Assembly: GCA_040005235.1 (NCBI GenBank)
Contig: JBDTZG010000028.1
Location: forward strand, 6,940-70,939
Origin: Acidobacteriota bacterium
GTDB taxonomy: Bacteria > Acidobacteriota > Thermoanaerobaculia > Multivoradales > UBA5704
Direction of reading: 5' to 3'
DNA length: 64,000 bases
Shown here: in pieces, positions 46,354 to 61,332 of the stretch
Numbering within the stretch: position 1 is the stretch's first letter
How the letters are laid out: each line of letters starts with the position of its first letter
Position numbers and translations under genes: made by a program
Notes under the pieces: generated by a model
Told to the model about the DNA's origin: nothing
Databases searched by the model: none
Seen by the model: only the letters and a program-made list of their open reading frames with translations

Positions 46354-46694
46354 GGCAGCTCCTCCCAGAAGATCACGCGATTGAGCGCGGGCGGTTCGAG
46401 CCCCAGCTCGTGCCGGGCGCGCTCCTCGATCCGCTGCGGGCTCGCCAGGTAGGCCGCTTCGAGCGACAGTTGCCGTTCGGTGCGGGTCATCTCCCGAAGT
46501 TGGGTTTCGAGTTTGTCGATCTTGTAGCCGGTCGACAGCACTTCGAGATGGATCCAGGTGTACGACAGCAAGCCGACGCCCAGAGCGCCGACCGCCGCCA
46601 GCACCAGACCCAGCTCGCGGAAGCGCTTGCGATCGCGCTCCCGAACCAGGTAGGCGTTGGCGACCGGCCGCGTGAAGGCGTAGGCATTCCTCAC
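46350..46694 (-). CDS. ftsL: cell division protein FtsL
   Basis: 114 aa, a single TM plus a coiled-coil-like region, positioned between rsmH and ftsI. GTGA overlaps at both ends. Confidence 0.8.
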   Translation of the reverse strand: MRNAYAFTRPVANAYLVRERDRKRFRELGLVLAAVGALGVGLLSYTWIHLEVLSTGYKIDKLETQLREMTRTERQLSLEAAYLASPQRIEERARHELGLEPPALNRVIFWEELP

Positions 46695-47635
46695 CGCGTC
46701 TCCAGTCTCCGACCCGCGCGCAGGCGCGCCGAGCGCGACCGGGGGTTGATCGCGATTTCTTCCTCGGTCGGGCGCACCGACCGCTTTGTCAGCAGCTCGA
46801 TCGCCTGGCTCTCCGAGCGGGGACGGCCGGTGACGAGATCGATCTCGCCGCGGTGCAGATCGCGCAGCGTGTTCTTGACGATCCGATCCTCCAGGCTGTG
46901 GTACGAGATGATCACCAGACGCCCTTCGGCGTCGAGCTGGTCGACTGCTTGGTCGAGAAAGCTAAGGAGTCCGGAAAGCTCCTCGTTGACCTCGATGCGC
47001 AGCGCCTGGAACACGCGGGTCGCCGGATCGACCCGCCCTTCGCGATTACGGTGTCCGGCCTCATGCCCCTTGCCGCGGTCGATCGCGCGGCGCAGCTCCG
47101 AGGTGGTCTCGATCGGTTTCTCGCGGCGCGCCGCGACGATCGCGCGCGCGATCCGCCGCGATTGCCGCTCCTCGCCGTACTCCCAGAAGATCTTGGCCAA
47201 TTCTTCCTCCGAGCTTTCGTTCACGATGTCCGCCGCGGTAAGGCCTTCGTGGCCCATCCGCATGTCGAGCGGTCCGCCGAACCGGAAACTGAAGCCCCGT
47301 TCCGGCGAATCGATTTGCAACGACGAAACGCCGAGGTCGGCGAGAATCCCCGCCACCCGGCCGATCCCTTCCGCCCCGAGCAGCTCACCCAGGTCGGCAA
47401 AATTCCCCTCGACCAGCCGCACCCGGGGGCCGAAACGCGCCAACCGTTCGCGCGCGAGCCCGAGCGCTTGGCGGTCGCGATCGATCCCCACCAGCTCGAC
47501 CCCGGGGCCGGCCTCGAGGATCGCTTCCGCGTGACCGCCGAGCCCAAGCGTCGCGTCGACGAACACGCCGCCCCGCTCTGGCGCGAGAAGCTCGACGACC
47601 TCGCGGAGCAGGACGGGGACGTGACGTGCGGCCAC
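46691..47635 (-). CDS. rsmH: 16S rRNA (cytosine1402-N4)-methyltransferase
   Basis: GTG 47635 gives VAARHVPVLLREVVELL...DATLGLGGHAEAIL, the typical RsmH/MraW N-terminus. The longer track ORF is rejected. Confidence 0.92.
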   Translation of the reverse strand: MAARHVPVLLREVVELLAPERGGVFVDATLGLGGHAEAILEAGPGVELVGIDRDRQALGLARERLARFGPRVRLVEGNFADLGELLGAEGIGRVAGILADLGVSSLQIDSPERGFSFRFGGPLDMRMGHEGLTAADIVNESSEEELAKIFWEYGEERQSRRIARAIVAARREKPIETTSELRRAIDRGKGHEAGHRNREGRVDPATRVFQALRIEVNEELSGLLSFLDQAVDQLDAEGRLVIISYHSLEDRIVKNTLRDLHRGEIDLVTGRPRSESQAIELLTKRSVRPTEEEIAINPRSRSARLRAGRRLETR

Positions 47636-47670
47636 GGGCTCTCGATCTCGGCGCGCGGAAGTCGCACGGA

Positions 47671-48114
47671 CTAGATTCCGCCGCGCTCCGCCAGGGCGCG
47701 GGAGTCGTCCTCGGTGAACGGCTGCTCGGCCATCCGCGCGACCAGGCGCTCGTGGTTCCAGACGATCAGGTGGTCGATCTGCGCCATCACCACCACGTCG
47801 CCGCTCATCCCGGCGCTCTCCCGCAGGATCTGCGGAATCACCAACCGCCCCTGGTCGTCCAACCGCACCTGCTGGCCGTAGTAGCTCGCGCGCTCCAGGA
47901 ACCGCTGCTTCGAGGGATCGGCCGAGGGCATCGCTTGGAGCTTCCCCTCGATCTCTTCCCAGACCGGCAGCGGGTAGAGCCGTGCGCAATCGCCGTGGAC
48001 CGAGGTCACGAACAGCTCGCGCCCATACCTCTCCTCAACGAACCGGCGGAAATCCGTCGGCACCTTGAGGCGGCCCTTCTCGTCGATCTTCGCTGGTGAG
48101 CTACCCCGGAACAT
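47671..48114 (-). CDS. mraZ: division/cell wall cluster transcriptional regulator MraZ
   Basis: MFRGSSPAKIDEKGRLKVP and a second DxxxR-type repeat DDQGRLVIP. First gene of the dcw cluster. Confidence 0.95.
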   Translation of the reverse strand: MFRGSSPAKIDEKGRLKVPTDFRRFVEERYGRELFVTSVHGDCARLYPLPVWEEIEGKLQAMPSADPSKQRFLERASYYGQQVRLDDQGRLVIPQILRESAGMSGDVVVMAQIDHLIVWNHERLVARMAEQPFTEDDSRALAERGGI

Positions 48115-48190: not shown

Positions 48191-48427
48191 TAGGGGCCAC
48201 CAGGACCCCGCGGTGGGCTCTGAAACCTCTTTCCGCAGGGTCGGCGCGGGCGGCAGAGTCGGCACGGGTGTTGAGTACCCGGTCCGGGCACGAGGCGTAC
48301 CTCAGGGGCTGTCGGCGCAAAAATTTGCGAAATTTGCCGCCCAGGGGTCCCGCTGTCTCGCATTGACGCGCCGAAGCACCGTAACATTGCAGAGACCACA
48401 CAATTGATTCGACCGAGGAGACCCCCC

Positions 48428-49888
48428 GTGTCGCAAAATCCTGTGCCGCTGCTTGCCGTGGTGTTGCGGAATCTCCGCGAGCGAGCCGGCTGGACCCAAG
48501 TCCGGCTCGAACGCGAGGCTCGCCTCAGCAAGGGATCGCTCTGCCGGCTGGAGAAGGGCAGCCAGACGGTCGATCGTTTCCTGCTCAATCGGCTGGCGAA
48601 GGTGATGAGAATCGCCGAGGGTGACGTGGAACAGGCGCTCGCAGTGCTGGAGCAGCTCCCGGCGGAGACCGGCGCCGGTTCGTCCGCGGACCTGCCGGTT
48701 CGCGACCGGCAGACGATCGAAACCGTCAGCGCGCGCTTTTCCCGCATGGTTCGCGAGAAGGCCCAGAACCGAATCGGGGGGAAGGTCCGCGCCCGGCGCT
48801 GGCGTCTCGACCGCGCGGCGGCCGCCGTGGCGTGGCAGCGGCTGCGCAAAATGCCCTCCGAGGATCGCCGGCTGATCGTTAAAGCGGTTGAGGCCTTTCA
48901 CACCTGGGCGGTGGTGGAACGGCTTTGCGAGGAGAGCGTAAGGGCGGCGGCCAGCGATATGGAGGAGGCCCGTAGGCTGGCGCAGCTTGCCCGGCAGGCC
49001 TCGACGGCCGCGAGCGGTGCCGAGCGAAGATATAAGTCGCTCGAAAATTACGCGGCGGCCTTCGAAGCGAACGCCTGGTGCGCTGCCGGCGAATTTCGGA
49101 AAGCCGAGCAGATTTTTGCCGAGGTCGATGCGCTCCATGGAGAAGGGCTGGACATCGCGGCAGTACCGGTCGATTGGGCCAGGCCACTGATCTTTCGAGC
49201 GGTGCTTATGATTTATCGGGCGAACCTCGATCCGGCATTGGAATGGCTGAACGAGGCGCTTTCGCTCACTCGCTCGCCGACCGTCAAGACTTGGGCGTTA
49301 ATCTGGCGAGCCGCTGTGCTCAAGCGGAAGCTCCAATTTCCCGCGGCGCTTGAGGAGCTGGAAAAGGCTCGGCCGTACGCCGAGCTTGCAGGCGATGCCC
49401 GGCTTCGATGGGCCATCGCCTTCAATGAAGCGGGTTATTTATGCGAAGCCGGCCATTTGGCGGAGGCTGCCGCCCGCCTTCCAGCCCTGAAGCTGGCAGC
49501 GTTGGAGCTCGGAGGAGCTCTGGATCGCCTGCGGCTCCGCTGGTTGACCGCGAGAGTGGCTGCTGCTTCAGGCCTGTTCCAGGAAGCCGCGACGAACCTC
49601 TCCGAGGTTTGGAATGCCTTTGCCGACCGGAACCTCTGGCTCGACGCGGCGATCGCGGTTCTCGAGCTGGCCAGCATCAACCTGGAGATGGGTCTGTCTG
49701 CCCAGGTCAAGAAGCTCGCCACGGCATCTGCTCACGTCTTCGCGGCGCAGACCCTGCCCGACCACCTTCTCGCGGCGGTTCGACTATTCTGGCAGGCCGC
49801 CCTTCAGGAAGCGGCCACTTCACAAATGGCGCGACAGCTGGTTGGGGACCTTCGCCGCGCCATGGTGGCAAACGCCGAAGCCTCCTGA
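48428..49888 (+). CDS. long XRE-HTH regulator with helical-repeat (TPR-like) C-terminal domain (R1)
   Basis: HTH LRNLRERAGWTQVRLEREARLSKGSLCRLEKG. Family signature FHTWAVVERLCEESV. About 300 aa of helical repeats. GTG 48428 has RBS GAGGAG; the track start is TTG 48404. Confidence 0.75.
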   Translation: MSQNPVPLLAVVLRNLRERAGWTQVRLEREARLSKGSLCRLEKGSQTVDRFLLNRLAKVMRIAEGDVEQALAVLEQLPAETGAGSSADLPVRDRQTIETVSARFSRMVREKAQNRIGGKVRARRWRLDRAAAAVAWQRLRKMPSEDRRLIVKAVEAFHTWAVVERLCEESVRAAASDMEEARRLAQLARQASTAASGAERRYKSLENYAAAFEANAWCAAGEFRKAEQIFAEVDALHGEGLDIAAVPVDWARPLIFRAVLMIYRANLDPALEWLNEALSLTRSPTVKTWALIWRAAVLKRKLQFPAALEELEKARPYAELAGDARLRWAIAFNEAGYLCEAGHLAEAAARLPALKLAALELGGALDRLRLRWLTARVAAASGLFQEAATNLSEVWNAFADRNLWLDAAIAVLELASINLEMGLSAQVKKLATASAHVFAAQTLPDHLLAAVRLFWQAALQEAATSQMARQLVGDLRRAMVANAEAS

Positions 49889-49907
49889 AGTCGTCGTCTC
49901 GCTTGGG

Positions 49908-50195
49908 CTAGGTCCCACACAGACCGTTCGGGTTGATCTCGCAGCCGACTTCGCCGAGAGGAGGCTTACTTCTCGGGCGACCGGAGTCGGAAGCACTGCG
50001 TCCGTCTGGGCTTGCGCCGCGGCGCCCGCTGGGCTCGATCTCGCAACCGCTCGGCGCCCACAGCGCGGAAAAGAATCTCCCGGCTTTGGCGAGCAGGTTC
50101 CCGAGATCCCACGGTGCGGCGGAGGCCTGGGTCGGGAAGGCGAGGACCACGACGAGAAGCAAGAGCGGCAGACGGCGGGGCGACGAAGCGGACAT
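49908..50195 (-). CDS. small secreted Cys-loop repeat peptide (pepA, 95 aa)
   Basis: Signal peptide MSASSPRRLPLLLLVVVLAFPTQASA, then FFSALW, module GCEIEPSGRRGAS and the terminal GCEINPNGLCGT. Paralogous to 58620-58952. Confidence 0.65.
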   Translation of the reverse strand: MSASSPRRLPLLLLVVVLAFPTQASAAPWDLGNLLAKAGRFFSALWAPSGCEIEPSGRRGASPDGRSASDSGRPRSKPPLGEVGCEINPNGLCGT

Positions 50196-50395
50196 GACCG
50201 ACTCCTATTCCGAGGGGACCGGCGCCGCGGCCTCCATGGCCGAACGGGCACCCTGCGAGTTCTTCCAGGCGCGCCTGGGCGAAGCTTGGACGCAAAATTT
50301 TGTGCTGCCAGGCGTACGGTGGGGTCTATCTTAGGAGCAAGCCCCGCCCTGCACGCTCTTTCGATACGATTCCCTCCAGAAACTCGGGAGGTGAC

Positions 50396-51220
50396 ATGAA
50401 CGACGCCTTGGATCGCCGCGCGGCAGGCTTGGTGATGCAGTTGTTTCGCTTCATGGCCGGCCGCCACCAGCACGACCTGAGCGAACGGACCGGGATCGAC
50501 ATAAAGCGGATTTCGCGTTACGAGCAGGGAAAAGTTCTGCCTCTTCGGCCGACGCTCGAACGACTCGCTGCGGGCGTCGGCGTCTCCGCGACCCGGCTCG
50601 ATCAGCTTCTCGCGTTGATTCGCACCGTGTGCGCCGAGGGCGAGGCGGCGACCGCCCAAAAGGAGCACGCCACAGCAGACCCCGACGAGTCCGATTGGCC
50701 GGACGATCTCGCCGAGCTGGCGGCGGAGATCGCCGAAGACCTACAGCCCGAGATTTACCAAGCCCTGAAGGAATTGAACGCCGAGCTGAACGCGCCGCCT
50801 CCGCCACTCGCCCCGGAAGCGGCGCGCGCCCAGGCTCGGGAGCTATGGGGAAGGTTCGAACCCTTGCCGGATCGCGTTCGCCGCCTGGTGATCGAACATG
50901 GCAAGGAGTACCAAACCTGGGCCTTTTGCGAACGGCTCTGCGAAGCAAGCCTCGACGCCGGATCGCGCGCGCCGGAGGACGGTCAGGCCTTGGCCGACCT
51001 GGCGCTCTCGGTCGCCGAGGCCGCCCAAGGGTCCGACGTGCTGCGCCAGCGCCTGACCGCCTTCGCCCTCGCCTGCGCCGCCCACGCGGATGTCCTCGCC
51101 GGGGACTCGGAAGAGGCCGCCGAGAAGCTGGGCCGGGCCAAGGCGCTCTGGACGGCCGGGGACGGCACCGACGATCTCGACCTCGGCCAGATCGCCGATC
51201 TGGTGCCCGCCGACTCGTAA
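50396..51220 (+). CDS. short XRE-HTH regulator paralog (R2)
   Basis: RBS GGGAGG lies before ATG 50396. HTH HQHDLSERTGIDIKRISRYEQG. Signature YQTWAFCERLCEASL. It lacks the long C-terminal repeat domain. Confidence 0.7.
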   Translation: MNDALDRRAAGLVMQLFRFMAGRHQHDLSERTGIDIKRISRYEQGKVLPLRPTLERLAAGVGVSATRLDQLLALIRTVCAEGEAATAQKEHATADPDESDWPDDLAELAAEIAEDLQPEIYQALKELNAELNAPPPPLAPEAARAQARELWGRFEPLPDRVRRLVIEHGKEYQTWAFCERLCEASLDAGSRAPEDGQALADLALSVAEAAQGSDVLRQRLTAFALACAAHADVLAGDSEEAAEKLGRAKALWTAGDGTDDLDLGQIADLVPADS

Positions 51221-51229
51221 GGAGTCCCC

Positions 51230-51631
51230 TCAGTTCGGCGCCCGCCGACTTGCGTCCGGCGGAAGCTCCGGCGGCGGCGGGCCGAGACGGCGCTCCAGGT
51301 CGGCGATCTTCTGTTCGAGATCTTCCGCCAGGATTTCGAGAGCCTGACAGAGCCGGTCCTCTTCCTCGGTCACCGTCGAGAGCCGCCGGGTCGCGGCGAG
51401 CCCGGCGAACGCCTGCTTTGTATGCCAGAGGTCGTCGATGCCGGCGCGCGTTCCCGCCTTGAGCCACGGTTCTCCGAACCCCGAGCCGTCTTCCAGCTCC
51501 AGCGCTTCCTCGGCGATCTTTTCGCAGGCATCCTGGACGCGTTGGCGCAAACCCGGCCGGGTGAAATGGACCAGGACCGACTCGCGGAACGGCGCCATCT
51601 CTCTCCAGCGGCGCTTGATCGGGTTGGTCAT
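51230..51631 (-). CDS. hypothetical cytoplasmic protein (S1)
   Basis: 133 aa, with a 4-nt overlap with the upstream S2 gene. No recognisable motif. Confidence 0.5.
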   Translation of the reverse strand: MTNPIKRRWREMAPFRESVLVHFTRPGLRQRVQDACEKIAEEALELEDGSGFGEPWLKAGTRAGIDDLWHTKQAFAGLAATRRLSTVTEEEDRLCQALEILAEDLEQKIADLERRLGPPPPELPPDASRRAPN

Positions 51632-52062
51632 CCTGGGGATGCCCGTCGCTCAGTCCGCACGGCGGCCCGGTGCCGGCCCAGGCGTCTCTCCTGCACCAGA
51701 CCCAGGAATGCGTCCCGATTCGCGGCCCCATGGGTCATCAGCGCCGCGAAGACCCGAAGGTTCAGACGGGCACCTTCCGGGGGCGGTGTACCTTCCAAGA
51801 GGGCGAGCAGTCGGGCGGCCAGCTCCGGCAAGATGCCCCCTCGCCCCTGGCGCAACAATACGGTTCCCAGCTCGATGTAGGCGTCCGCCGCTGCCATCAC
51901 CTCGCCCGATGCGCGCCAGGTTCCCGCGGCGCGGCCGAACAGTCGCGCCGCCTCTTCGAGGTTCCCATCGTCCCGCTCGCGCTCGGCCCGGTCGAAGATC
52001 TCTCCGGCGGCCCGCCGCAACTCGCCGGGTGCGAGGGGAGAGGCCGGACTTACAGAGGCCAT
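51628..52062 (-). CDS. hypothetical helical protein (S2), resembles the C-terminal module of R1/R3
   Basis: 144 aa. ...DDGNLEEAARLFGRAAG...AADAYIELGTVLLRQG...LAARLLALL... parallels the R1 and R3 C-termini and paralog S3. Confidence 0.55.
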   Translation of the reverse strand: MASVSPASPLAPGELRRAAGEIFDRAERERDDGNLEEAARLFGRAAGTWRASGEVMAAADAYIELGTVLLRQGRGGILPELAARLLALLEGTPPPEGARLNLRVFAALMTHGAANRDAFLGLVQERRLGRHRAAVRTERRASPG

Positions 52063-52499
52063 TCCATTCCTTTTCTGTGCTTCCGGACGTCCGCGAGCAA
52101 CTCGCCTAGTAACGGCGAGCTCGGCGGGGTGATCTCGAGCAAGAGCAAAAGGTTGGAAAAAAGCTCGATTTCCGGCGGCGCCACGGCGAGCGTCGCCGGC
52201 TTGGCGGCGAGCCAGTCCGGCAGGTCGACACGTTCAAGGCGATAGACCGCGGCCAGCGAGAGCGCCGCTAGCCCTTCGAGCCAGGGTTGCTCCGCTTTGC
52301 CGAAGGCATGGACGGCGAGAATAAAACTCTCTTCTGCCTGGGACAGGTTGCCCGCCGCCGCGGCGCGCTCGGCAAAATCCATCGAGCGCCAAGCCAACCG
52401 GAAAAAAGCCGGATGCGCCGGTTCCTTAGCCGGCGCATCCGCGGGCCCTGCGAGCGCGAGAGGGGGTGCGGGTCGCCCGCAGGGGAAAAAGGAGTCCAT
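52050..52499 (-). CDS. hypothetical helical protein (S3), paralog of S2
   Basis: 149 aa. ...AAGNLSQAEESFILAVHAF...LAALSLAAVYRLE... has the same layout as S2. 13-nt overlap with S2. Confidence 0.5.
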   Translation of the reverse strand: MDSFFPCGRPAPPLALAGPADAPAKEPAHPAFFRLAWRSMDFAERAAAAGNLSQAEESFILAVHAFGKAEQPWLEGLAALSLAAVYRLERVDLPDWLAAKPATLAVAPPEIELFSNLLLLLEITPPSSPLLGELLADVRKHRKGMEWPL

Positions 52500-52694
52500 G
52501 CGTGCGAGGGTAGGTCCAGGGATTCAGCTTTCGCGCTAGCCTGCCGCTCGTGGATGGCGTAGTTATCCATTTCGATAACATTTCTTGGGATGCCGGGGAA
52601 CTTTCCCAGCTCGTCATGCCGAGCGAGAGCTCTGCACACTCCAGCGGAGGCGGGGGGGAGTTCCGGCACTACATTCAATATTGCAGGAACCACC

Positions 52695-53810
52695 CTAGGG
52701 CTGCAGGCCGCCGTTCCACGAAGTGTCCTTGAGCAGATCGGCCCAATTCACGTCGGCGCTCAGCACATTGAATTCGTCGCTGCCGTCCGAGAAGACGTTG
52801 AGGTGTGCCGCCCGCCGAAAGACCTCCTCGCCTTGAATTTCGAAGCCGGGCCGTAGCGGCGGCAAGATGTAGAGGCCCATCCACGGACTACCGGTTGGGT
52901 TACAGCCCGTCTGGCCGGAAGCGGTGCAGAAGGGGAGCGCCGTGATTTCGCCCGTCGTCAAGCGTCCCTGGGTATCGGTGTGCAGGCGCAGCAGGAAGGG
53001 GATTTCCAGGTCACTGTAGACACACACTCCGTCGTCATCGCAGGAAAGGGCAGAGTCATAGGCGTCAATCCGGTAAGTCAGCGGCTCCTCCGCCCGGTAG
53101 AGAGCGGTCTTGTAGGAAATAAAGGCGCAGAACGGATTGGGAATGGGTTCCGCCAGGCAGCCTGTCGGCCGAACCGTCCGCGCGAGGATCGAGTAGACCT
53201 TGAGGTCAAAGTCGGTCACTTCGGTATGGCAGGGAGAGAGTAGGTCGTCGACGGTCAAACCGCGTCCCGCGGTGTCCGCGTGGTCCGCCTGCGCGTCCTG
53301 GAGAGTGGTGATCCGAATCGAATTCTTCGGCTGAAAAGGGTCTGGCGGCTCCCGGGACAGGATGAGATCCACGAGCATCGAGAACCGGGTCGTCCCCTCG
53401 AGATTCGAAGACGCATCCCGCCGAACCAAGGTGGCCTGGGGCCGGCGATCCCTTCGGGGGTTCAAGAAGTCCTCGTCCTCGCGAAGGATCAGGTCGAACG
53501 CCAGCTGTTTCTCCTGTCGCTCGCGGTCGCCTTGAACCGTGGTGTGTCGCAACTGGCTGGTGCTGGCCAATCCTCTGTAGGTGCCGCCATTGGCGCTCGA
53601 CCGCCAGAGGAGGAGGCTCGACTCCCCGTAGGAAACCCCCATGCGGTGCAGCAACCTCCCCATTTGCCGCTCTTCGCAGGCGACCTGCTCGGACGTGAGG
53701 GGGCGGCCGAAGGGCTGGGCCACAGCATTGCGTACCGCACATGCGCCGAAGACCAGGGCCACGGCCCAAGCCGGCACCCGCCACCCTACGGCTGCAGGCC
53801 GCCGTTCCAC
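52695..53810 (-). CDS. secreted Cys-containing protein of unknown function (P1), tandem paralog of P2
   Basis: Collinear with P2 over the full length (QPFG.PLTSEQVACEERQMGRLLHRMGVSYGE ... NWADLLKDTSWNGGLQP). GTG start at 53810; an alternative is GTG 53777. Confidence 0.7.
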   Translation of the reverse strand: MERRPAAVGWRVPAWAVALVFGACAVRNAVAQPFGRPLTSEQVACEERQMGRLLHRMGVSYGESSLLLWRSSANGGTYRGLASTSQLRHTTVQGDRERQEKQLAFDLILREDEDFLNPRRDRRPQATLVRRDASSNLEGTTRFSMLVDLILSREPPDPFQPKNSIRITTLQDAQADHADTAGRGLTVDDLLSPCHTEVTDFDLKVYSILARTVRPTGCLAEPIPNPFCAFISYKTALYRAEEPLTYRIDAYDSALSCDDDGVCVYSDLEIPFLLRLHTDTQGRLTTGEITALPFCTASGQTGCNPTGSPWMGLYILPPLRPGFEIQGEEVFRRAAHLNVFSDGSDEFNVLSADVNWADLLKDTSWNGGLQP

Positions 53811-54889
53811 GAGGTGTCCTTGAGCAGGTCCGCCCAGTTGACGTCGGCACGTAGAATGTTCAAGTCAGGAAAGGCAACCGAGAAAAGGTTCAGGTGGGCC
53901 GCACGCCGAAAGACTTCCTCTCCCTGAACCTCGATGCCGGGTCTCAGGGGAGGTAAGACGTAAAGGCCCATCCAAGGACTGTCCTCCGGGCTGCATCCGG
54001 TTTGGCCCGACGCTGTGCAAAACGGCAGCAGCGAGACCTCCCCGGATGCCAACCGGCCTTGGGCGTCGGCTTGGATGCGAAACAGCAGTGAATTCTGCTC
54101 GTCGCTGTAAACGCACACGCCGTCTTCGTCGCAGGACAACGAGGAGAGATATACGTCGGCCCGATAGGTCAGCGGCTCCTCCGCGCGGTAGAACGCGGTT
54201 TTAAAGGAAATGAATCCGCAGACCGGGTTGGGAATGGGTTCCGCCAGGCAGCCCGTCGGCCGCACCGTCCGGGCGAGGATCGAGTAGACCTTTAGGTCGA
54301 AATCGGTCACCTCAGTATGGCAGGTATTCAAAAGGTCGTCGACGGTCAGACCGCGTCCGGCGGTGTCCGCGTGGTCCTCCGGCGCTTCCTGGAGGGTGGT
54401 GATCCGGATCGAATTCTTTGGGTGGAAAGGGTCGGGCGGCTCCGGGGACAGGATGAGATCTACGAGCATCGAGAACCGGGTCGTTCCCATCGGGTCGAGG
54501 TTCGACGCCGCGTCCCGCCGGACCAGCGTCGCCTGCGGGCGGCGTTCCCGCCGGGGGTTCAAGAAGTCTTCATCGGCGCGGAGAATCAGGTCAAACGCCA
54601 GCTGTTTCTCATCGCGCATCCGGATGTCTACGGTCGTCGTAGGATCGAAATAAAGGTGGTCCGTACTGGCCAAGCCTCTGTAGCTGCCGCCGTTGGCCGC
54701 CGATCGCCAAAGGTAGAGGCCAGCCTCGCCATATGAGACCCCCATACGATGAAGCAATCGCCCCATCTGGCGCTCCTCGCAGGCGACCTGCTCGGACGTG
54801 AGGGGGCTGCCGAAGGGCTGGGCCGCCATAATTCCCGGGGCGATGATTACCAGGAAGAGAATCGCGAACAACGCGCTTTTGGGTTTCAT
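53786..54889 (-). CDS. secreted Cys-containing protein of unknown function (P2)
   Basis: ATG 54889 with signal peptide MKPKSALFAILFLVIIAPGIMAAQ. The track ORF's N-terminal extension is rejected. Confidence 0.75.
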   Translation of the reverse strand: MKPKSALFAILFLVIIAPGIMAAQPFGSPLTSEQVACEERQMGRLLHRMGVSYGEAGLYLWRSAANGGSYRGLASTDHLYFDPTTTVDIRMRDEKQLAFDLILRADEDFLNPRRERRPQATLVRRDAASNLDPMGTTRFSMLVDLILSPEPPDPFHPKNSIRITTLQEAPEDHADTAGRGLTVDDLLNTCHTEVTDFDLKVYSILARTVRPTGCLAEPIPNPVCGFISFKTAFYRAEEPLTYRADVYLSSLSCDEDGVCVYSDEQNSLLFRIQADAQGRLASGEVSLLPFCTASGQTGCSPEDSPWMGLYVLPPLRPGIEVQGEEVFRRAAHLNLFSVAFPDLNILRADVNWADLLKDTSWNGGLQP

Positions 54890-55098
54890 AGCTTCCCCGC
54901 TGAACCTGTCTTCTGTTGGACCTGGAGAACGATGTCGAAGGAATAGAACGGCGAAACGATCTCGCAACTTCCCCCGTTGCAGGTTTTGTGGATGGGATCC
55001 CAATTGATGGTCTGGACTGCCGTCATGGTTCCCGTTGCCGGCGTGACCCACTGGACCTCGAACCGATCGGCCGTCGGTCCGAGGTTCAAGAGCGTCAA
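54886..55098 (-). CDS. small protein X, translationally coupled to P2; the true N-terminus is probably further upstream
   Basis: ATGA overlap with the P2 start. The frame stays open and protein-like up to about 55320, but the first ATG/GTG/TTG in frame is TTG 55098. Confidence 0.5.
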   Translation of the reverse strand: MTLLNLGPTADRFEVQWVTPATGTMTAVQTINWDPIHKTCNGGSCEIVSPFYSFDIVLQVQQKTGSAGKL

Positions 55099-55321
55099 GC
55101 GGTCTTGGTATTTCTGCGCCAGCCAGATCCGCGCGTCGAAAGCGTTGCGCGGGAGAAATATCGGTTTGGCGCTCGGAGACGTGGACTCTTTGGGGCATCC
55201 GTTCGCAGTGAACTCCGCCTCGGGCGCGTTCGATGCCGTGCTGGCCGCGCAGCGGATCGTGCTGTGGTGTAGATAGAGCAGGAAAAGCCGGTTCGGCTCC
55301 GGTCTCCGACCTGGATCGGCA

Positions 55322-56821
55322 TCAATCGGTATCCGTCGGAGATTGAGGGCCTTGATGTAGGTCGGGTCTCGCAGCGCTATTGGGCAGCCCTCCAGACCAA
55401 GCTGACCGGGACGAGGTGAGGCGCCCGAGCGGCAGCGCGTTGACGAATTTCTTGAGTACGCCGAGTTGGCGCCGAATGGTCGCGGGGGTGTTCGGGTCGC
55501 CTCCGGAGAGATATCCGAAATGGTCGTAGGTGGCGCCCTGGTCGAACAGAAACTCCCAGGCTTCGGCGCGCGCCGGTTCGGCGAGCTTTTCTGTCAGGGC
55601 GCCGTTGGTATGGGCGCGGGTGCCGCTCTTGCCTCCGACATCTGGGTTGCCGATGAACTGACCGGCGCCTTTGGTCGTAAACGGCTGTACCGCCACCAAA
55701 TGCCCGCCGGCGGCCAAGCGCGGGTATTTCGCTTCCTGAAAGGTGACCTGGGCAATCATGTCGCGCTGCCACTTGGCGACCTCGAGGGGATCGACGGTCT
55801 GGGCCTCCGGCTCGTTGGCGATCTCCCAATAGACGGTGTCGAAGCACCAGAGTTCTTGGACCGTCCACTCGATCACTTTGGCCTGGGCCACGCGCATGCG
55901 CTCGTTCGTCAGGGCCTCCTGGGTGCCTCGCGTGTCGTGGGTCACGAAGTACTCGGGCTTTGAGAACTTCACCGTCTCGAACGTCCCGTCCGACTTCGGC
56001 ATCATCCCCTTGCCGCCCCAGGGACCCTGGGAGAAGAAATCTCCCTCGAACGGCGCGAAGATGGTCACTTCGACGATCATCTTCCTCGGGTCCTGGGCGT
56101 AGGCCACGACATCGCGCAAGCGTTGGAAATACCGCGTGTTCGGCTTGTCCAGGCGCCAGAACGGGTAGGCGTTGGCCGGGAAGTTGGCGCAGTCGGGGCT
56201 CGCCACGGCGCTCGGGCAATAGAGGAACGGGACGTTGTTCGGGTTTTTCTCTCCGGCCAGGGCGATCCAGAGGCGGAGCTTGTTCAGGCCCGCTTCGAAG
56301 GCGGCTTGGATCGTCGTGGGGTAGTTGGTCCAGTTGCATTTGTCGGAGGAGAGTTCGAGGTGGCAGCCGTTGTCAGCCGAGACGCCGACGAGGGTCTGGA
56401 TCGTGTTGCGGTACGAAAAGTAGCGCGAGGCGAAAGGCAGGGCGGCGGTCGTTTTGCCGATCTTGATCGGGGTGATCGTCTGCGTGATGTTGCCGCAACC
56501 GGTGGCGGAAATCGTGGGATCGGCCGGAACGTCGGGGTCGGTGCCCAGCAGCTCGGGCGGATAGAGATCCTCCGAGTCGAGCGAATTCGGGTCGCCGTCG
56601 TAGGGGAGCAAGTCGTCGCCGAGGGTCCACAGCTCGGCGGGCAAGCTGGGGTCGGTGGTCGAGCCACCGTCGCCGAAGACGGAAGAGAGGGGTGGCTCTT
56701 CTTCGGGTCCGGGTGGGGGTTGGGCGGGAAGGGGGGCACCGACCGAGAGGAACGAAAGAAAGATGAAGGCGAGGGTCGCACGGTGGCAGAGGGATAAGAG
56801 TAGCGAGCGAGTTCGGTCCAC
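55322..56821 (-). CDS. secreted glycoside hydrolase clan GH-A (GH5-like) candidate
   Basis: Signal peptide, a Pro/Asp-rich linker and a TIM-barrel-like domain with YWEIANEPE (the NEP acid/base motif). GTG start at 56821 with RBS AAAGGA. Confidence 0.5.
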   Translation of the reverse strand: MDRTRSLLLSLCHRATLAFIFLSFLSVGAPLPAQPPPGPEEEPPLSSVFGDGGSTTDPSLPAELWTLGDDLLPYDGDPNSLDSEDLYPPELLGTDPDVPADPTISATGCGNITQTITPIKIGKTTAALPFASRYFSYRNTIQTLVGVSADNGCHLELSSDKCNWTNYPTTIQAAFEAGLNKLRLWIALAGEKNPNNVPFLYCPSAVASPDCANFPANAYPFWRLDKPNTRYFQRLRDVVAYAQDPRKMIVEVTIFAPFEGDFFSQGPWGGKGMMPKSDGTFETVKFSKPEYFVTHDTRGTQEALTNERMRVAQAKVIEWTVQELWCFDTVYWEIANEPEAQTVDPLEVAKWQRDMIAQVTFQEAKYPRLAAGGHLVAVQPFTTKGAGQFIGNPDVGGKSGTRAHTNGALTEKLAEPARAEAWEFLFDQGATYDHFGYLSGGDPNTPATIRRQLGVLKKFVNALPLGRLTSSRSAWSGGLPNSAARPDLHQGPQSPTDTD

Positions 56822-57041
56822 GGCGCTGTCCTTTCAAGGTTTCCGCGTTACGCGGAAGACTGCTGGAACGGTAGCAGCGCCGACGATATTTTCGCAAACA
56901 ATTTCATCACATTCGGTATGGCTTTCAGATTTCTGCGGCTCTGGGGTGACCTGGGAACTGAGACGGATGGGAGCGGGCGTTTTCTGCCCGCGGGGCGATG
57001 ACGATGAACGGTGAGGACCCTAAGAGCCAAATGCTCCCAAT

Positions 57042-57060
57042 GAGGAAACCAGGTTTCCTC
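57042..57060. promoter_or_regulatory. perfect 19-bp palindrome in the divergent GH5-like/R3 intergenic region
   Basis: GAGGAAACC-A-GGTTTCCTC, about 100 bp upstream of the R3 start. Confidence 0.4.
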
Positions 57061-57158
57061 TCTGTGCGGCGGGCAGGCGTCCCAATTTATTTGTTGTCAC
57101 GAAAAGTGCCTCAGCGGCAACAAGATGTATTAAAGACACCAGACCCCGGAGAACCGCG

Positions 57159-58613
57159 ATGCCCAAGGTGGACCTGCCGCCGACGAATGCGGCGCTATTG
57201 ATTTTGCGCATCCTGTGTCGCCTGACACAGGATGAGTTCGGCGAGCTGACCGGCATGAAGAGCCGGATCGTCGAGATCGAGAATGGCCGGTATGTCCTTA
57301 AGCGCGCCGAGCTCGAAGATCTGGTGGAGGAGCTCAAGGTGTCGGCCTACGCGGTGCCGGTCGCCCTCGGCCTATCGGAGCTGGTGTTGCCGTCGACCGA
57401 CAAGACCCCCCACCCCTGGGAGGCGACGCCCGACGCGCGGTTTCAGGCCGAGCGCGCGACCCTCGAATCGTCCGCCATCGTGCGCCGTCTGTTCCTCGCC
57501 GAAGCGCGCGCGGAGCGCTACGCGGCGGACCGCGAGGAGGCCGAGCGCCTCTGGAAGCTGCTTGCGCCGCTCAATCGCGACCGGCGGCGGGTGATGGCCC
57601 GGATCGTCGATTTCTCGACCTGGGCGGTGGTCGAGCGCCTCTGCATCGAGAGCCTCAGGGGAGCGCCTCGGGATCCCGGGGCCGCCCGCTCGCTCGCCGA
57701 GCTGGCCGTTGAGGTGGCCCAGAGGATTCCGCCGCTGCCCAGGTTCAGCGATCGGGTGGAAGGGTACGCCCAGGCCCACTTGGGCAACGCCTTTCGAGTC
57801 GGGAACGACTTTGACGAGGCGGTTCGCGCTTTCGCGCTCGTCGCGAAACTTTGGATCGAGTTCCTGCCGGGCGAGGCCTGCCCGTTTGACGTGACGCTGA
57901 TCCCCGACCTAGAAGCTTCTCTGCGCCGCGATCAGCGTCAATTCTCCTTAGCGTTCGCTGGGCACGACCGGGCTCTTTCCTTCGCTGTCGAGGATGCGAT
58001 CCGCGGGCGCATCCTCCTCAATAAGGCAGTGACATTCGAGCATTCCGGCGATCCAGTTGGTGCGGTTGCAACTCTCAGCGCTGCTCAGCCTCTTATCGAC
58101 ACGAGCAACGAAACCCGGCTGGGTTGTGTCGCGCGTTTCAACTTGGCGGTCAACCTCCTCCATCTTGGAAACGCCTTAGATGCCGAGCCGCTGATCGCCG
58201 AGGTGCGGGCGCTTGCGATCGAACAGCGAAACGAGCTTGACCTGATCCGGGTCCTTTGGCTCTCCGGCCGCCTTGCCGCCGCGCAAGGAGATCGGGCGAA
58301 GGCGATGGTCTCGATCGATGACGCGGCCTGTCGCTTCGCCGAACAGGGCCTCGGATATGACGCCGCACTGGCGGTGCTCGACCTCGCGGGGCTGCTCTTG
58401 GAAGAAGGCAACCCGAGAGAGGCAGCCCGGAGGGTGGCCGAGGTGCAACCCACTTTCCACGTGCGAAACATTCACCGGGAGGAACTGGCGAGCCTGGTTC
58501 TGTTCCTCCAAGCCGTCGAAACCGAAGCGGCGACCGCCGCGCTGGCGCGCGCGGCGGCCGAGGCCTGGAGGTTGTTCGGCACGCCCGTTCCTTTCGGAAG
58601 TCTGGCCGACTGA
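57159..58613 (+). CDS. long XRE-HTH regulator with helical-repeat (TPR-like) C-terminal domain (R3)
   Basis: HTH LTQDEFGELTGMKSRIVEIENG. Signature FSTWAVVERLCIESL. The C-terminal repeats are collinear with R1. Confidence 0.75.
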   Translation: MPKVDLPPTNAALLILRILCRLTQDEFGELTGMKSRIVEIENGRYVLKRAELEDLVEELKVSAYAVPVALGLSELVLPSTDKTPHPWEATPDARFQAERATLESSAIVRRLFLAEARAERYAADREEAERLWKLLAPLNRDRRRVMARIVDFSTWAVVERLCIESLRGAPRDPGAARSLAELAVEVAQRIPPLPRFSDRVEGYAQAHLGNAFRVGNDFDEAVRAFALVAKLWIEFLPGEACPFDVTLIPDLEASLRRDQRQFSLAFAGHDRALSFAVEDAIRGRILLNKAVTFEHSGDPVGAVATLSAAQPLIDTSNETRLGCVARFNLAVNLLHLGNALDAEPLIAEVRALAIEQRNELDLIRVLWLSGRLAAAQGDRAKAMVSIDDAACRFAEQGLGYDAALAVLDLAGLLLEEGNPREAARRVAEVQPTFHVRNIHREELASLVLFLQAVETEAATAALARAAAEAWRLFGTPVPFGSLAD

Positions 58614-58619
58614 AATGAA

Positions 58620-58952
58620 CTACTGGCCGCAGCGACCCTCTGGGTCGACGACGCAACCCGCGTCGCGAAGGATCGGCGCCGGGGCACTCGACGAACCGCA
58701 GCGGCCGTAGGGATCGAGGCTGCAGCCCACGTCGCTGAGGATCGGCACCGGGGCGCTCGACGGGCCGCGGCCGCCGTGGGGGTCGAGGCTGCAGCCCTCC
58801 TCCTCCCAGAGGGCCGAAAGAAACGACCAGCCGCGGGCGAACAGGTCGGGGAGGGTGCGATCGAGCGGCAAGGCGCCGGCCGGGAAGGCACTGAGGAGGA
58901 AGAGGGCTAGCAGAGCGACGGCGAGGGCGAGGTGACGCTTCGGTTGGGGCAT
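58620..58952 (-). CDS. small secreted Cys-loop repeat peptide (pepB, 110 aa)
   Basis: Signal peptide MPQPKRHLALAVALLALFLLSAFPAGA, then FLSALW and three modules: GCSLDPHGGRGPSS, GCSLDPYGRCGSS and the terminal GCVVDPEGRCGQ. The modules are encoded by 69-bp tandem DNA repeats. Confidence 0.7.
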   Translation of the reverse strand: MPQPKRHLALAVALLALFLLSAFPAGALPLDRTLPDLFARGWSFLSALWEEEGCSLDPHGGRGPSSAPVPILSDVGCSLDPYGRCGSSSAPAPILRDAGCVVDPEGRCGQ

Positions 58953-59028
58953 GGCGGTGGGCTCCTGGTCAGCCCGGGAACCTCCGGCCGGGATGGCCGG
59001 CGGCCCGGTACGAAGGGGTTCAGAGGGT

Positions 59029-59046
59029 AACCCAAGTTTTTGGGTT
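59029..59046. promoter_or_regulatory. AT-rich inverted repeat between pepB and R4
   Basis: AACCCAA-GTTT-TTGGGTT, with perfect 7-bp arms, 22 bp upstream of the R4 ATG. Confidence 0.4.
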
Positions 59047-59067
59047 CATTTTTCTCTTGGAGGGATC

Positions 59068-59955
59068 ATGGAACGGAAATCCGGCAGAACGCGAGACGTT
59101 CGCTCAGGACTCAGTGCGGCACCCACCCCTGGCGCCGCCGCGAAGGGGGGAAGGGCCGCGGCCAAAGCGCGGGACGCCGAGTACTCGGCTCTGTTGGTCC
59201 GGTATATGGATGCGACGGTCGGCCCGCGGCACGACCAGTTCGCGGAGTTGGTCGAGATCAGCGCGGCGCGGGCGAGCCTCTACCGCTACGGCTACAAGGT
59301 GCCCCGGCCCGAGACGAAGGCCCGTTTCTCCGGCCGGGTCGGGCTGCCGATCGAATGGTTCGAGGCGATGACCGCCGACTCGTTGTTTCTCCGCGGCAAA
59401 AGCTCAAAGCCGGCGGGAAGTACTCCCGCAGCCCTGGCGGAAGACCTCTCCCGCCGGCTCGCGGGCCAGCTCGCCCCGCGGTTCGCGGCGTTGCGCAGCG
59501 TAGCCCCCGCCGCCCCTCCTCCTCCTCCTCCTTCGCTCGAACGGGCGGCGGCCGATCGAGCCGAGGCGGACCGGCATTGGACCGAAATCGAGCCGCTCAC
59601 CGCCGCCGAGCGCGCCCTCGCGGTGCCGGAGATCCCGAGGTTCCACTCCTGGGCGCTGGTCGAGCTGCTCTGCGGAAAAAGTGTAGAGGCCGCGCCCGTG
59701 TCGCCGGCCGAAGCGCTCGCCCTCGCCAAGCTGGCCATACGACTGGCCCGCCGGGTCCAAGCAAGCCAAGGATTTCGCGACCGCCTGATGGGCTACGCCC
59801 TCCTCCACTCGGCCGCCGCACTCAAGAGCCTGAACGACCTGCCGCGAGCCCGGGAAGCCCGCGCGCGCGGGCTACGGCTTTTCGCGGCGGGGCGGAAGGA
59901 GGATCCGGGGTTGCTGGATGAAGCGATCGCCGAGGGACTCGCGTCGTCGTCGTAG
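59068..59955 (+). CDS. short XRE-HTH regulator paralog (R4)
   Basis: RBS GGAGGG lies before ATG 59068. HTH-like HDQFAELVEISAARASLYRYG. Signature FHSWALVELLCGKSV. Confidence 0.65.
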   Translation: MERKSGRTRDVRSGLSAAPTPGAAAKGGRAAAKARDAEYSALLVRYMDATVGPRHDQFAELVEISAARASLYRYGYKVPRPETKARFSGRVGLPIEWFEAMTADSLFLRGKSSKPAGSTPAALAEDLSRRLAGQLAPRFAALRSVAPAAPPPPPPSLERAAADRAEADRHWTEIEPLTAAERALAVPEIPRFHSWALVELLCGKSVEAAPVSPAEALALAKLAIRLARRVQASQGFRDRLMGYALLHSAAALKSLNDLPRAREARARGLRLFAAGRKEDPGLLDEAIAEGLASSS

Positions 59956-60023: not shown

Positions 60024-60584
60024 TCAGGGTGTGGATGCCTGAGCGAGGAAGGCACCAAAGACATCAGTAGGCACGTGGTCGATCTGGGCGCCGGGGCTGT
60101 TTGCGGCTTCAGAGAAGAAGTCCTCTATCGCTTGGACCGACCGAGCGAACGCATCGCTGCAAATTGTTGGAAATGCAGCGCCGAAGCCGAAGGTTTTTGT
60201 CACTTTGCTCGTGCCTTTCCTACCGAACCAAGTGACCGCGGAGACGAAGACTTCGCCTTGTCCTGGAACGTCCCGATAAGCGCAGTGGCCACGCTCGGAA
60301 CCGAATCGGTTCTCGGACAGGGCCTGCTGTAGCCGGCGGACGGCATCCGAAGTACCCCGGGCTCGAATCAGGGTCGTTTGGCCGGGCGACCGCTGGGTGC
60401 TGATCAACAGGCCATCGCGAAAGATGACGTAGTCGATATTTGTCTTGAAGCCGGTCACCTCGTCGTCGACGTGGGCCGTGCGACGAACGAGGTAGCTTTC
60501 GGGTGCCGGCGTCTGAGCCAGCGCCAGCGTGGGCAGGATCAGTGCCAGGGCATAGAGCCAGAAAACGGGTCTAGTTGCTCTCAT
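60024..60584 (-). CDS. secreted protein of unknown function (Q1), tandem paralog of Q2
   Basis: ATG 60584 with RBS GGAGG. Signal peptide ...LALILPTLALAQ. Near-identical to Q2 over 186 aa. Confidence 0.7.
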   Translation of the reverse strand: MRATRPVFWLYALALILPTLALAQTPAPESYLVRRTAHVDDEVTGFKTNIDYVIFRDGLLISTQRSPGQTTLIRARGTSDAVRRLQQALSENRFGSERGHCAYRDVPGQGEVFVSAVTWFGRKGTSKVTKTFGFGAAFPTICSDAFARSVQAIEDFFSEAANSPGAQIDHVPTDVFGAFLAQASTP

Positions 60585-60707
60585 ACGACACCTCCGGGGC
60601 GAGTATTCCACGGAACTACACGAACAATACCGGTTTGCCGGTTACAGCTTGTCAGTGGAGCGAGACATCCGGTTGTCGCCCAGGATTCTTACGGCGAAGG
60701 GACAAGC

Positions 60708-60745: not shown

Positions 60746-61306
60746 TCAGGGTATGGATGCCTGAGCGAGGAAGGCACCAAAGACATCTGTAGGCACGTGG
60801 TCGATCTGGGCGCCGGGACTGTTCGCGGCCTCAAAGAAGAAATCCGCGATCGCTCGGACCGAGCGAGCAAATGACTCGCTGCATTGGGACGGGAATGCGG
60901 CGCCAACGCCGAAAGTTTTCGTCACCTGGCTGGTTCCCGTTCTTCCGAACCAAGTTACCGCTGAGACAAAGACTTCGCCTTGCCCCGGGAAGTCGCGATA
61001 CGAGCAGCGATTACCCGCGGTGCCGAACCGGTTCTGGGAAAGCACCTGCTGCAGCCTTCGGACGGCATCTGCCGTGCCCCGGGCTCGAATCAGGGTCGTT
61101 TGGCCCGGCGACCGTTGGGTGCTGATCAATAGGCCGTCTCGAAAGATGACGTAGTCGATATTTGTCTTGAAGCCGGTCACCTCGTCATCGACGTGGGCCG
61201 TCCTCCGGACGAGGTAGCTCTCGGCTGCCGGTGTTTGTGCCAGGGCCAACGTTGGCGGGTTCAGCCCCAGGGTACAGATCCAGAAAAGGTAACTTCTCGC
61301 TCTCAT
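60746..61306 (-). CDS. secreted protein of unknown function (Q2)
   Basis: ATG 61306 with RBS GGAGG. Signal peptide and the same sequence family as Q1. Confidence 0.7.
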   Translation of the reverse strand: MRARSYLFWICTLGLNPPTLALAQTPAAESYLVRRTAHVDDEVTGFKTNIDYVIFRDGLLISTQRSPGQTTLIRARGTADAVRRLQQVLSQNRFGTAGNRCSYRDFPGQGEVFVSAVTWFGRTGTSQVTKTFGVGAAFPSQCSESFARSVRAIADFFFEAANSPGAQIDHVPTDVFGAFLAQASIP

Positions 61307-61332
61307 TCGCCACCTCCAAGCCACAAAGTGCT

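Follow-up and report, generated by a model that had tools for sequence, protein, structure and literature searches.

We analysed a 64,000-nucleotide stretch of DNA from an Acidobacteriota bacterium (contig JBDTZG010000028.1; the whole stretch is called the window below), in which four paralogous transcriptional regulators, R1 to R4, lie with two small genes for secreted propeptides, pep1 and pep2. The six genes form two modules, each with a long regulator in position 1, a peptide gene on the opposite strand and a short regulator in position 2, and all four regulators share a conserved block, which we call the box. The long regulators combine an XRE-type helix-turn-helix (HTH) with a tetratricopeptide repeat (TPR) region.

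48428..49888, plus strand: R1, long XRE-HTH and TPR regulator of 486 aa, position 1 of module 1
48896..48937, plus strand: box of R1, residues 157-170, FHTWAVVERLCEES
49908..50195, minus strand: pep1, secreted propeptide of 95 aa, Shine-Dalgarno sequence AGGAG
50396..51220, plus strand: R2, short regulator of 274 aa, position 2 of module 1, divergent from pep1
50909..50950, plus strand: box of R2, residues 172-185, YQTWAFCERLCEAS
57159..58613, plus strand: R3, long XRE-HTH and TPR regulator of 484 aa, position 1 of module 2
57612..57653, plus strand: box of R3, residues 152-165, FSTWAVVERLCIES, helix 155-168 of the structural model
58620..58952, minus strand: pep2, secreted propeptide of 110 aa, NCBI locus ABJC13_14680, annotated as hypothetical
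59068..59955, plus strand: R4, short regulator of 295 aa with a degenerate HTH, position 2 of module 2
59641..59682, plus strand: box of R4, residues 192-205, FHSWALVELLCGKS

R1 starts at GTG 48428 behind the Shine-Dalgarno sequence GAGGAG, within an open reading frame (ORF) that opens at TTG 48404. The ORF of R4 opens at 58951, and its start is most likely not there but at ATG 59068 (Shine-Dalgarno sequence GGAGGG), which agrees with the 295-aa protein called by NCBI, P0121. Pairwise, the four proteins share an overall identity of only 22-28%. The XRE-type HTH matches of R1 to R3 in Pfam are to HTH_31, HTH_3 and HTH_19: HTH_31 was found in R1 (E 1e-8; 35.8 bits) and R2 (33.0 bits) above its cut-off of 27, and the HTH_19 match of R3 is slightly below threshold (25.9 vs 30.2 bits); the TPR matches of R3 are all sub-threshold. 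The HTH of R4 had no Pfam match above threshold; it can be aligned to the family profile, and the R4 orthologs P0125 and P0127 carry PF01381. Against the hidden Markov model (HMM) of the family, R1 scores 466.8 bits across positions 3-482. The recognition helices of R1, R2, R3 and R4 are all different in the alignment, which argues against simple competition for one operator. Neither NB-ARC nor any other P-loop NTPase domain was found ahead of the TPR sensor in R1 to R4 with Pfam and NCBIfam. The ratio of nonsynonymous to synonymous divergence (dN/dS) is 0.19-0.39 over all six genes (0.37 for pep1 and 0.34 for pep2), and all six are under purifying selection.

The original prediction held that an HTH, a variable linker and a box are common to the four paralogs, and this is borne out: all the quoted strings are found in plus-strand ORFs, and W, A, E, L, C and S of the box (F/Y)x(T/S)WAxxExLCxxS are invariant in R1 to R4. 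The signature also holds family-wide in the profile conservation of 151 distinct regulators from 82 sources. In this set the box corresponds to HMM positions 161-175, WALAERLCEESVRAA, ranks fifth among the conserved 15-residue stretches, and is conserved at W (85%), A (79%), L (79%), E (72%), C (79%), S (96%) and A (90%). It is preceded by a conserved R-x-x-A-x-x-x-W-x-x-L motif and followed by A..LA.LA...A, conserved at 88-97%, and its conservation is equal among position-1 long, position-2 long and short forms. The tail that had been read after the box in every paralog, P..A..LA.LA...A, is present in R2, R3 and R4; R1 lacks the P. As had been claimed, R1 and R3 extend far beyond the box, by 316 and 319 aa, against 89 aa in R2, which consists of the HTH, the linker, the box and this remainder, and 90 aa in R4. 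The box does not map to an already known domain family, and no family covering it was found in Pfam, NCBIfam or the PDB sequences. In Pfam and NCBIfam, the regulators, the peptides and the neighbouring genes gave only HTH and sub-threshold TPR matches, and the box and the peptides stayed uncovered even at E up to 10.

The AlphaFold (AF2) model of R3 has a predicted local distance difference test score (pLDDT) of 87.8 and a predicted template modelling score of 0.79, and it is all-helical. The HTH (helices 8-58) is followed by a 45-residue helix (91-135), a short helix and the box helix, 155-168, which pairs with helix 173-189; at least seven further helical hairpins extend to residue 472. The model thus has a TPR-like superhelix whose first helix is the box; of the two possibilities raised earlier, the start of a TPR array or a dimer interface, it bears out the first. 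In the AF2 model of R4, residues 150-290, comprising the neck, the box and ~1.5 repeats, form a compact helical unit with pLDDT 88-98, and the HTH part is uncertain. We consider it highly probable that the box is both the first helix and the boundary of the sensor module.

Between each long and short regulator, on the opposite strand and behind a good Shine-Dalgarno sequence, lies a secreted peptide gene, which the original prediction does not mention, and it is this gene that gives the pairing its meaning. Both products have a signal peptide, an amphipathic L..L..ALW segment and two to three copies of G-C-x-(I/L)-(D/E/N)-P-x-G-x-(C). The signal peptide of pep1 ends in ASA and is followed by the helix LLAKAGRFFSALW and two Cys-loop units, GCEIEPSG and GCEINPNGLCG, and pep2 has an AGA-type site and three units, GCSLDPHG, GCSLDPYGRCG and GCVVDPEGRCG. 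The genes converge with stop-to-stop gaps of 19 bp (pep1/R1) and 6 bp (pep2/R3), and a promoter and terminator scan, otherwise uninformative, gave no terminator-like hairpin in the gaps 49888-49908 and 58613-58620. The convergent regulator and peptide transcripts may overlap, so that antisense effects or transcriptional interference are possible.

Scanning for ORFs that contain two or more C..[DENS]P.G units returned only pep1 and pep2 in the 64-kb window and at least one gene in 66 of the 82 sources; chance ORFs were considered as an explanation for these genes and rejected. A long (~490-aa) family regulator converges on the 3' end of 67 of the 70 distinct peptide genes, which come from Thermoanaerobaculia and Holophagales loci. 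The 70 peptides have a median length of 110 aa and two to four units of the consensus (D/K/E)(E/A)G-C-x-(I/L)-D-P-(N/D/S/H)-G-x-C, with G(-1) and D(+3) each conserved at 95%. A second Cys stands at +8 in 78% of the units and in the last unit in every case, and this last unit lies 2-5 residues from the C-terminus. By a heuristic (a hydrophobic 12-mer after K/R, not SignalP), 65 of the 70 have a signal-like N-terminus.

To see which parts of the cassettes vary, we compared the window with a syntenic locus, L001, from another metagenome-assembled genome (MAG), using amino acid identity and synonymous divergence (dS; pS is the uncorrected proportion). In module 1, the TPR part of R1 has an amino acid identity of 0.51 and a saturated pS of 0.74, and the pep1 repeats an identity of 0.39 and a dS of 1.04, with R2 beyond its HTH at a dS of 0.19. 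In module 2, residues 251-360 of R3 reach a dS of 1.18 with the rest of R3 at 0.10-0.28, the pep2 repeats 0.72 with the signal part at 0.20, and R4 is uniform at 0.20-0.22. The dS of mraZ is 0.09, and the dcw cluster that adjoins the cassettes is 97% identical. In this comparison, the TPR part and the peptide repeats diverge together, and the HTH part and the short paralogs do not. Synonymous divergence this high is better explained by old alleles or recombination than by a relaxation of constraint. The boundary of divergence is sharp: the dcw cluster (mraZ, rsmH, ftsL onward; 46350-48114) keeps its 97%, and the regulator cassettes at 48354-59929 are 76-88% identical with local dips to 51-65%. 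In the pep1 ortholog (7539-7805 of L001), the Cys of the first unit is lost (AHEIHPNG) and the second unit is altered (GCVILPDGRCGA), which parallels the strong divergence of the R1 TPR.

Other loci are mosaic as well. In two of them, L045 and L018, two long regulators around one peptide gene are 99.6% identical in DNA across 983 nt and 98.8% across 1,008 nt, respectively; in both loci this stretch begins at the box and reaches the 3' end of the gene, and the HTHs are only 23-27% identical. A third, L052, has the same sensor-only repeat pattern at 86% identity.

L045, 4467-5449 and 6350-7332: direct repeats of ~1 kb, 99.6% identical
L018, 4484-5491 and 6366-7373: direct repeats of ~1 kb, 98.8% identical
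L052, 2663-3628 and 4334-5299: direct repeats of ~1 kb, 86% identical

That these repeats start at the box suggests gene conversion limited to the sensor domain. In L041, two tandem regulator and peptide units have HTH and neck regions 95-97% identical, TPRs 54-58% identical, and different peptides. In a JGI/ENA metagenome protein of 604 aa, P0105, an N-terminal GGDEF diguanylate cyclase domain replaces the HTH ahead of the family sensor, and the homology to R3 begins at residue 119, with the box included. From the patterns in L045, L018, L052, L041 and P0105, the sensor is a module that moves as a whole and follows the peptide, separately from the HTH head. The N-terminal edge of the sensor is placed between the R-x-EA-x-x-LW motif and the box, and the neck at the box is prone to recombination.

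With these data, we cautiously favor a reading in which each long regulator is the receptor of the peptide encoded next to it, in a receptor-propeptide cassette resembling those of the RRNPP family, with a second regulator. In this scheme, the ~490-aa protein (R1 or R3) would be a cytoplasmic receptor-regulator, in which a long helix connects the XRE HTH head with the TPR-like sensor; the product of the small gene converging on its 3' end, with two to four G-C-x-(I/L)-D-P-x-G-x-C units, would be a Sec-exported propeptide; and a second family regulator (R2 or R4) is encoded divergently from the peptide gene. By analogy with RRNPP systems, the propeptide would be exported and cut into short Cys-loop peptides, which would build up extracellularly and then be taken up again. 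Inside the cell they would dock on the concave side of the TPR sensor in the position-1 regulator, and the binding would alter the action of the HTH at AT-rich intergenic palindromes. The box and the preceding R-x-EA-x-x-LW-x-x-L helix end would form the conserved neck that joins a variable DNA-binding head to the sensor. R2 and R4 keep the head, the neck and ~1.5 repeats and lack most of the sensor, and should for that reason be blind to the signal; most likely they would be constitutive or autoregulatory DNA binders at the promoter shared by the peptide gene and the second regulator, or alternatively partners of the long form through the retained neck. We infer the processing and import of the peptide, its binding to the TPR, the DNA sites, the role of the short forms and any heteromer.

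The operational signature of RRNPP systems is a TPR receptor of 250-500 aa with a small ORF of 10-100 aa within -60 to 400 bp (PMC10075063), and the main survey built on it analysed Firmicutes genomes only (PMC10075063). The cassette agrees with it in receptor size, TPR, N-terminal HTH, an adjacent Sec-type propeptide and a short gap; pep1 (95 aa) lies within the length limit and pep2 (110 aa) is 10 aa above it. Occurrence in Firmicutes or in their phages or plasmids was not found, as all 78 loci kept are from Acidobacteriota (Thermoanaerobaculia, Holophagales, gp7 or unclassified). Compared with the members of the RRNPP(A) group (Rap, Rgg, NprR, PlcR, PrgX, AimR and ComR), the cassette is alike in the HTH and TPR receptor with an adjacent Sec-signal ORF, in that the C-terminal part of the propeptide would be the signal, in the repeated mature units, as in some Phr peptides, and in the many paralogous cassettes per genome. 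It differs in its hosts, which are diderm Acidobacteriota only, in having a second regulator, in peptide units that are Cys-bracketed DPxG loops, and in the ~45-residue helix and conserved box neck that link HTH and TPR. The best bacterial structural neighbors of the R3 model are the peptide-bound RRNPP receptors Rap and NprR (RapJ-PhrC, Foldseek TM 0.63). The family profile, searched against PDB sequences, reached the TPR of RapH at E 5.8e-4 and the HTH of PlcR at E 2.8e-3 amid generic TPR and HTH matches. By analogy the cassette would thus work like an RRNPP system; membership of the RRNPP family is unproven.

Several observations count against this assignment. TPR superhelices are generic, and eukaryotic LGN/Pins outscores every Rap against the R3 model. 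A search of PDB sequences with the family profile did not establish homology to any known RRNPP receptor. Peptide and receptor genes are convergent, an atypical arrangement for RRNPP pairs. To our knowledge, the known RRNPP pheromones are linear and lack paired Cys. The hosts are diderm, so import must cross two membranes, and clustering of flanking ORFs within 4 kb gave no recurrent Opp-type transporter, protease or modifying enzyme. The co-divergence was seen in one genome pair (two modules) together with mosaics in four other loci, all from MAGs; assembly errors might conceivably have produced the 1-kb repeats, which are nevertheless present in three separate assemblies. Finally, the definitions of both motifs, peptide and operator, come from this window.

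A different explanation takes the Cys-repeat protein as the regulated product, whether bacteriocin-like, defensin-like, metal-binding or a surface protein, with the TPR sensing some other cue and the regulators acting as ordinary XRE/TPR factors. The peptide is secreted and capable of disulfide formation, its only Pfam matches are weak and driven by composition (Defensin_5 and Metallothio_Cad, E 0.005-0.02, below cut-off), its promoter region is common to the second regulator, L001 carries LanC-like and MacB/FtsX genes a few kb away, and disulfide loops are not known in RRNPP pheromones, all of which would fit a regulated product. Such a product, however, leaves unexplained why the TPR and not the HTH diverges alongside the peptide repeats, why the two regulators on either side of one peptide gene are kept identical across the sensor alone, and why the TPR and the peptide changed jointly in L041 with the HTH kept; moreover, no recurrent immunity, export or modification genes lie near the cassette. 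We regard this explanation as unlikely.

The family behind R1 to R4 looks large, undescribed and restricted to Acidobacteriota. Relatives of R3 number in the hundreds, nearly all of ~490 aa and annotated merely as XRE or TPR proteins, in MAGs of Acidobacteriota and Thermoanaerobaculia. A profile search of 1.84 billion representative proteins returned 3,306 clusters at E<=1e-30 and 7,405 at E<=1e-10, and a scan of one genome per species, made with a 12-sequence alignment since a 44-sequence alignment was too diverse, returned 202 relatives. Literature searches with RRNPP together with Acidobacteria, with Thermoanaerobaculia peptide quorum sensing and with 'RRNPP-like' yielded no description of the cassette. 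The distribution also bears on whether the paired XRE regulators make up a bistable switch of the cI/Cro type within a mobile or defence element, with the small ORF as an accessory. Two XRE-type regulators do flank a divergent promoter with AT-rich palindromes, the region is a hotspot of divergence and insertion beside the conserved dcw cluster, and one related locus has an integrase within 5 kb. Nevertheless, a scan of 2.9 million viral contigs found no relative of the family (a phage-borne cassette was considered and rejected), the flanks hold no recurrent phage or integrase genes, two MAGs share the chromosomal position of the cassette, single genomes often carry several cassettes, and cI/Cro switches have no ~330-aa TPR sensor, which together make such a switch very improbable.

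The original prediction also proposed that a long and a short regulator are paired within each module, which suggested heteromeric or antagonistic regulators, a mode of action that remains a hypothesis. The paired architecture is recurrent and selected, but it is not the rule, as the second regulator can also be full-length or HTH-only: divergent from the start of the peptide gene, it is full-length in ~22-25 modules, mid-length in ~22-24 and HTH-only in ~8-9, absent in ~5 cases, and runs into a contig edge in 5. The best cross-locus match keeps its position in 62 of 69 position-1 and 30 of 45 position-2 regulators, and partners within one locus are only ~36% identical; from these comparisons, position-1 and position-2 regulators are old, distinct lineages. 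The 16 short orthologs of R4 (289-313 aa, 59-86% identity) share a conserved end, ...DPGLLDE plus ~10 aa, directly ahead of the top conserved motif of the family, LDLEASLRRDQRR. The 29 mid-length forms fall into 11 sequence clusters that all end at HMM ~254-260, and the nearest relatives of these clusters are mostly long forms, so the truncation point recurs. With Foldseek, the R4 model had no significant match in the PDB (best E 0.047; RRNPP members among the matches listed at TM <0.26). Short forms as frameshifted long genes were rejected, there being no coding space left downstream. It is extremely unlikely that R2 and R4 are functionless, decaying pseudogenes left over from full-length regulators: they do lack ~230 aa of the sensor, the HTH of R4 is degenerate without a Pfam match, and a long relative of R4 exists (P0137, 516 aa, 55%), but the dN/dS of 0.29 (R2) and 0.39 (R4), the conservation of the R4 C-terminus down to ~60% identity, the common end of the short forms, the lack of remaining coding space and the confident fold of the retained R4 part all speak against it. 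From these comparisons, the short form does not appear to be a decay product.

Among other known systems, Rgg2 and Rgg3 of Streptococcus pyogenes are paralogous receptors of the same SHP pheromones with opposing outputs. The likeness lies in two paralogous HTH-TPR regulators per peptide signal, as in L045 and L018 with their shared sensor; in contrast, the HTHs of the cassette are unrelated in recognition sequence (19-27% identity), and the second regulator of the window has no sensor. The comQXP system of Bacillus and the agrBDC system of Staphylococcus are alike in having diverged, high-dS sensor and signal segments between conserved flanks; their receptors are membrane histidine kinases instead of cytoplasmic HTH-TPR proteins, and their peptides are modified. 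Unlike MalT-type and STAND regulators, those of the cassette have no NB-ARC or ATPase domain, and their DNA-binding domain is XRE, not LuxR, and N-terminal.

Peptide signaling through cytoplasmic receptors is regarded as a hallmark of Gram-positive Firmicutes, and literature searches found no description of peptide quorum sensing in Acidobacteriota soil organisms. If our reading is correct, a phylum-specific receptor and propeptide family would extend this logic to diderm, abundant and hard-to-culture soil Acidobacteriota. Tentatively, and at a little less than even confidence, this could be the first HTH-TPR peptide-pheromone system outside Firmicutes, with >3,000 clusters (50% identity), disulfide-capable C-x-I-D-P-x-G-x-C loops as signals cut from multi-copy propeptides, co-diversifying pherotypes, a sensor that recombines at the box and neck with various DNA-binding heads or a GGDEF output, and signal-blind truncated paralogs. 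The ligands could be synthesized directly from the sequence, the convergent layout brings the sensor-coding and signal-coding ends within ~1 kb, and the box and neck would offer a ready-made site for swapping domains, which could help in the design of orthogonal regulators that respond to peptides.

The GC content of the window is 62-72%, and AT-rich palindromes stand out against it. Four intergenic palindromes are candidate DNA sites, which we treat as leads only:

48316..48329, unstranded: candidate operator palindrome CGCAAAAATTTGCG, upstream of R1
50291..50304, unstranded: candidate operator palindrome CGCAAAATTTTGTG, in the divergent pep1/R2 intergenic region, largely kept in L001 despite diverged flanks
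57044..57058, unstranded: palindrome GGAAACC-A-GGTTTCC, upstream of R3, conserved in L001
59029..59046, unstranded: perfect inverted repeat AACCCAA-GTTT-TTGGGTT, in the divergent pep2/R4 intergenic region, identical in L001

The pattern CGCAAAAWTTTGYG occurs only at 48316 and 50291 in the 64 kb with up to one mismatch allowed, a uniqueness test that is circular since the pattern was derived from the same two sites. For AACCCAA-N4-TTGGGTT, 0.03 matches are expected by chance, and the repeat at 59029 also scored as terminator-like. A general inverted-repeat search missed the short palindromes.

In the neighborhood, the ~4.4 kb at 52601-57025 are absent from L001, where the two cassettes adjoin. 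They encode a pair of secreted paralogs on the minus strand (52695-53810 and 53786-~54870) and a further secreted protein of 499 aa (55322-56821), for none of which a Pfam or NCBIfam family was found. Between R2 and this insertion, three small genes (133, 144 and 149 aa; 51230-52499, minus strand) are kept in L001; the middle one (144 aa) is weakly TPR-like, and in L004 a homolog of the 133-aa gene, 73% identical, lies upstream of the R3 ortholog. Directly downstream of R4, two tandem ~190-aa paralogs (60024-60611 and 60746-61324, minus strand) have signal-peptide-like N-termini and no family, and may be targets of the cassette. In 12 loci (L011, L012, L029, L030, L033, L038-L041 and others), a small protein absent from the window is encoded directly upstream of the position-1 regulator and divergent from it; it has a C-x-x-C...RLWxLG segment and a conserved C-terminal motif, TEIRxVIxCVLxDxIxPAIxDL, and may play an accessory part. 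On the far side of the second regulator and close to it, 8 loci carry a ~390-aa family (YLLVRTE..G.ALDRFDP..L.LERV) without a homolog in the window, which could be a regulated target:

L007, L033, L037 (the same as L003 9650-10375), L042, L047, L054, L072 and L081: loci with the ~390-aa family

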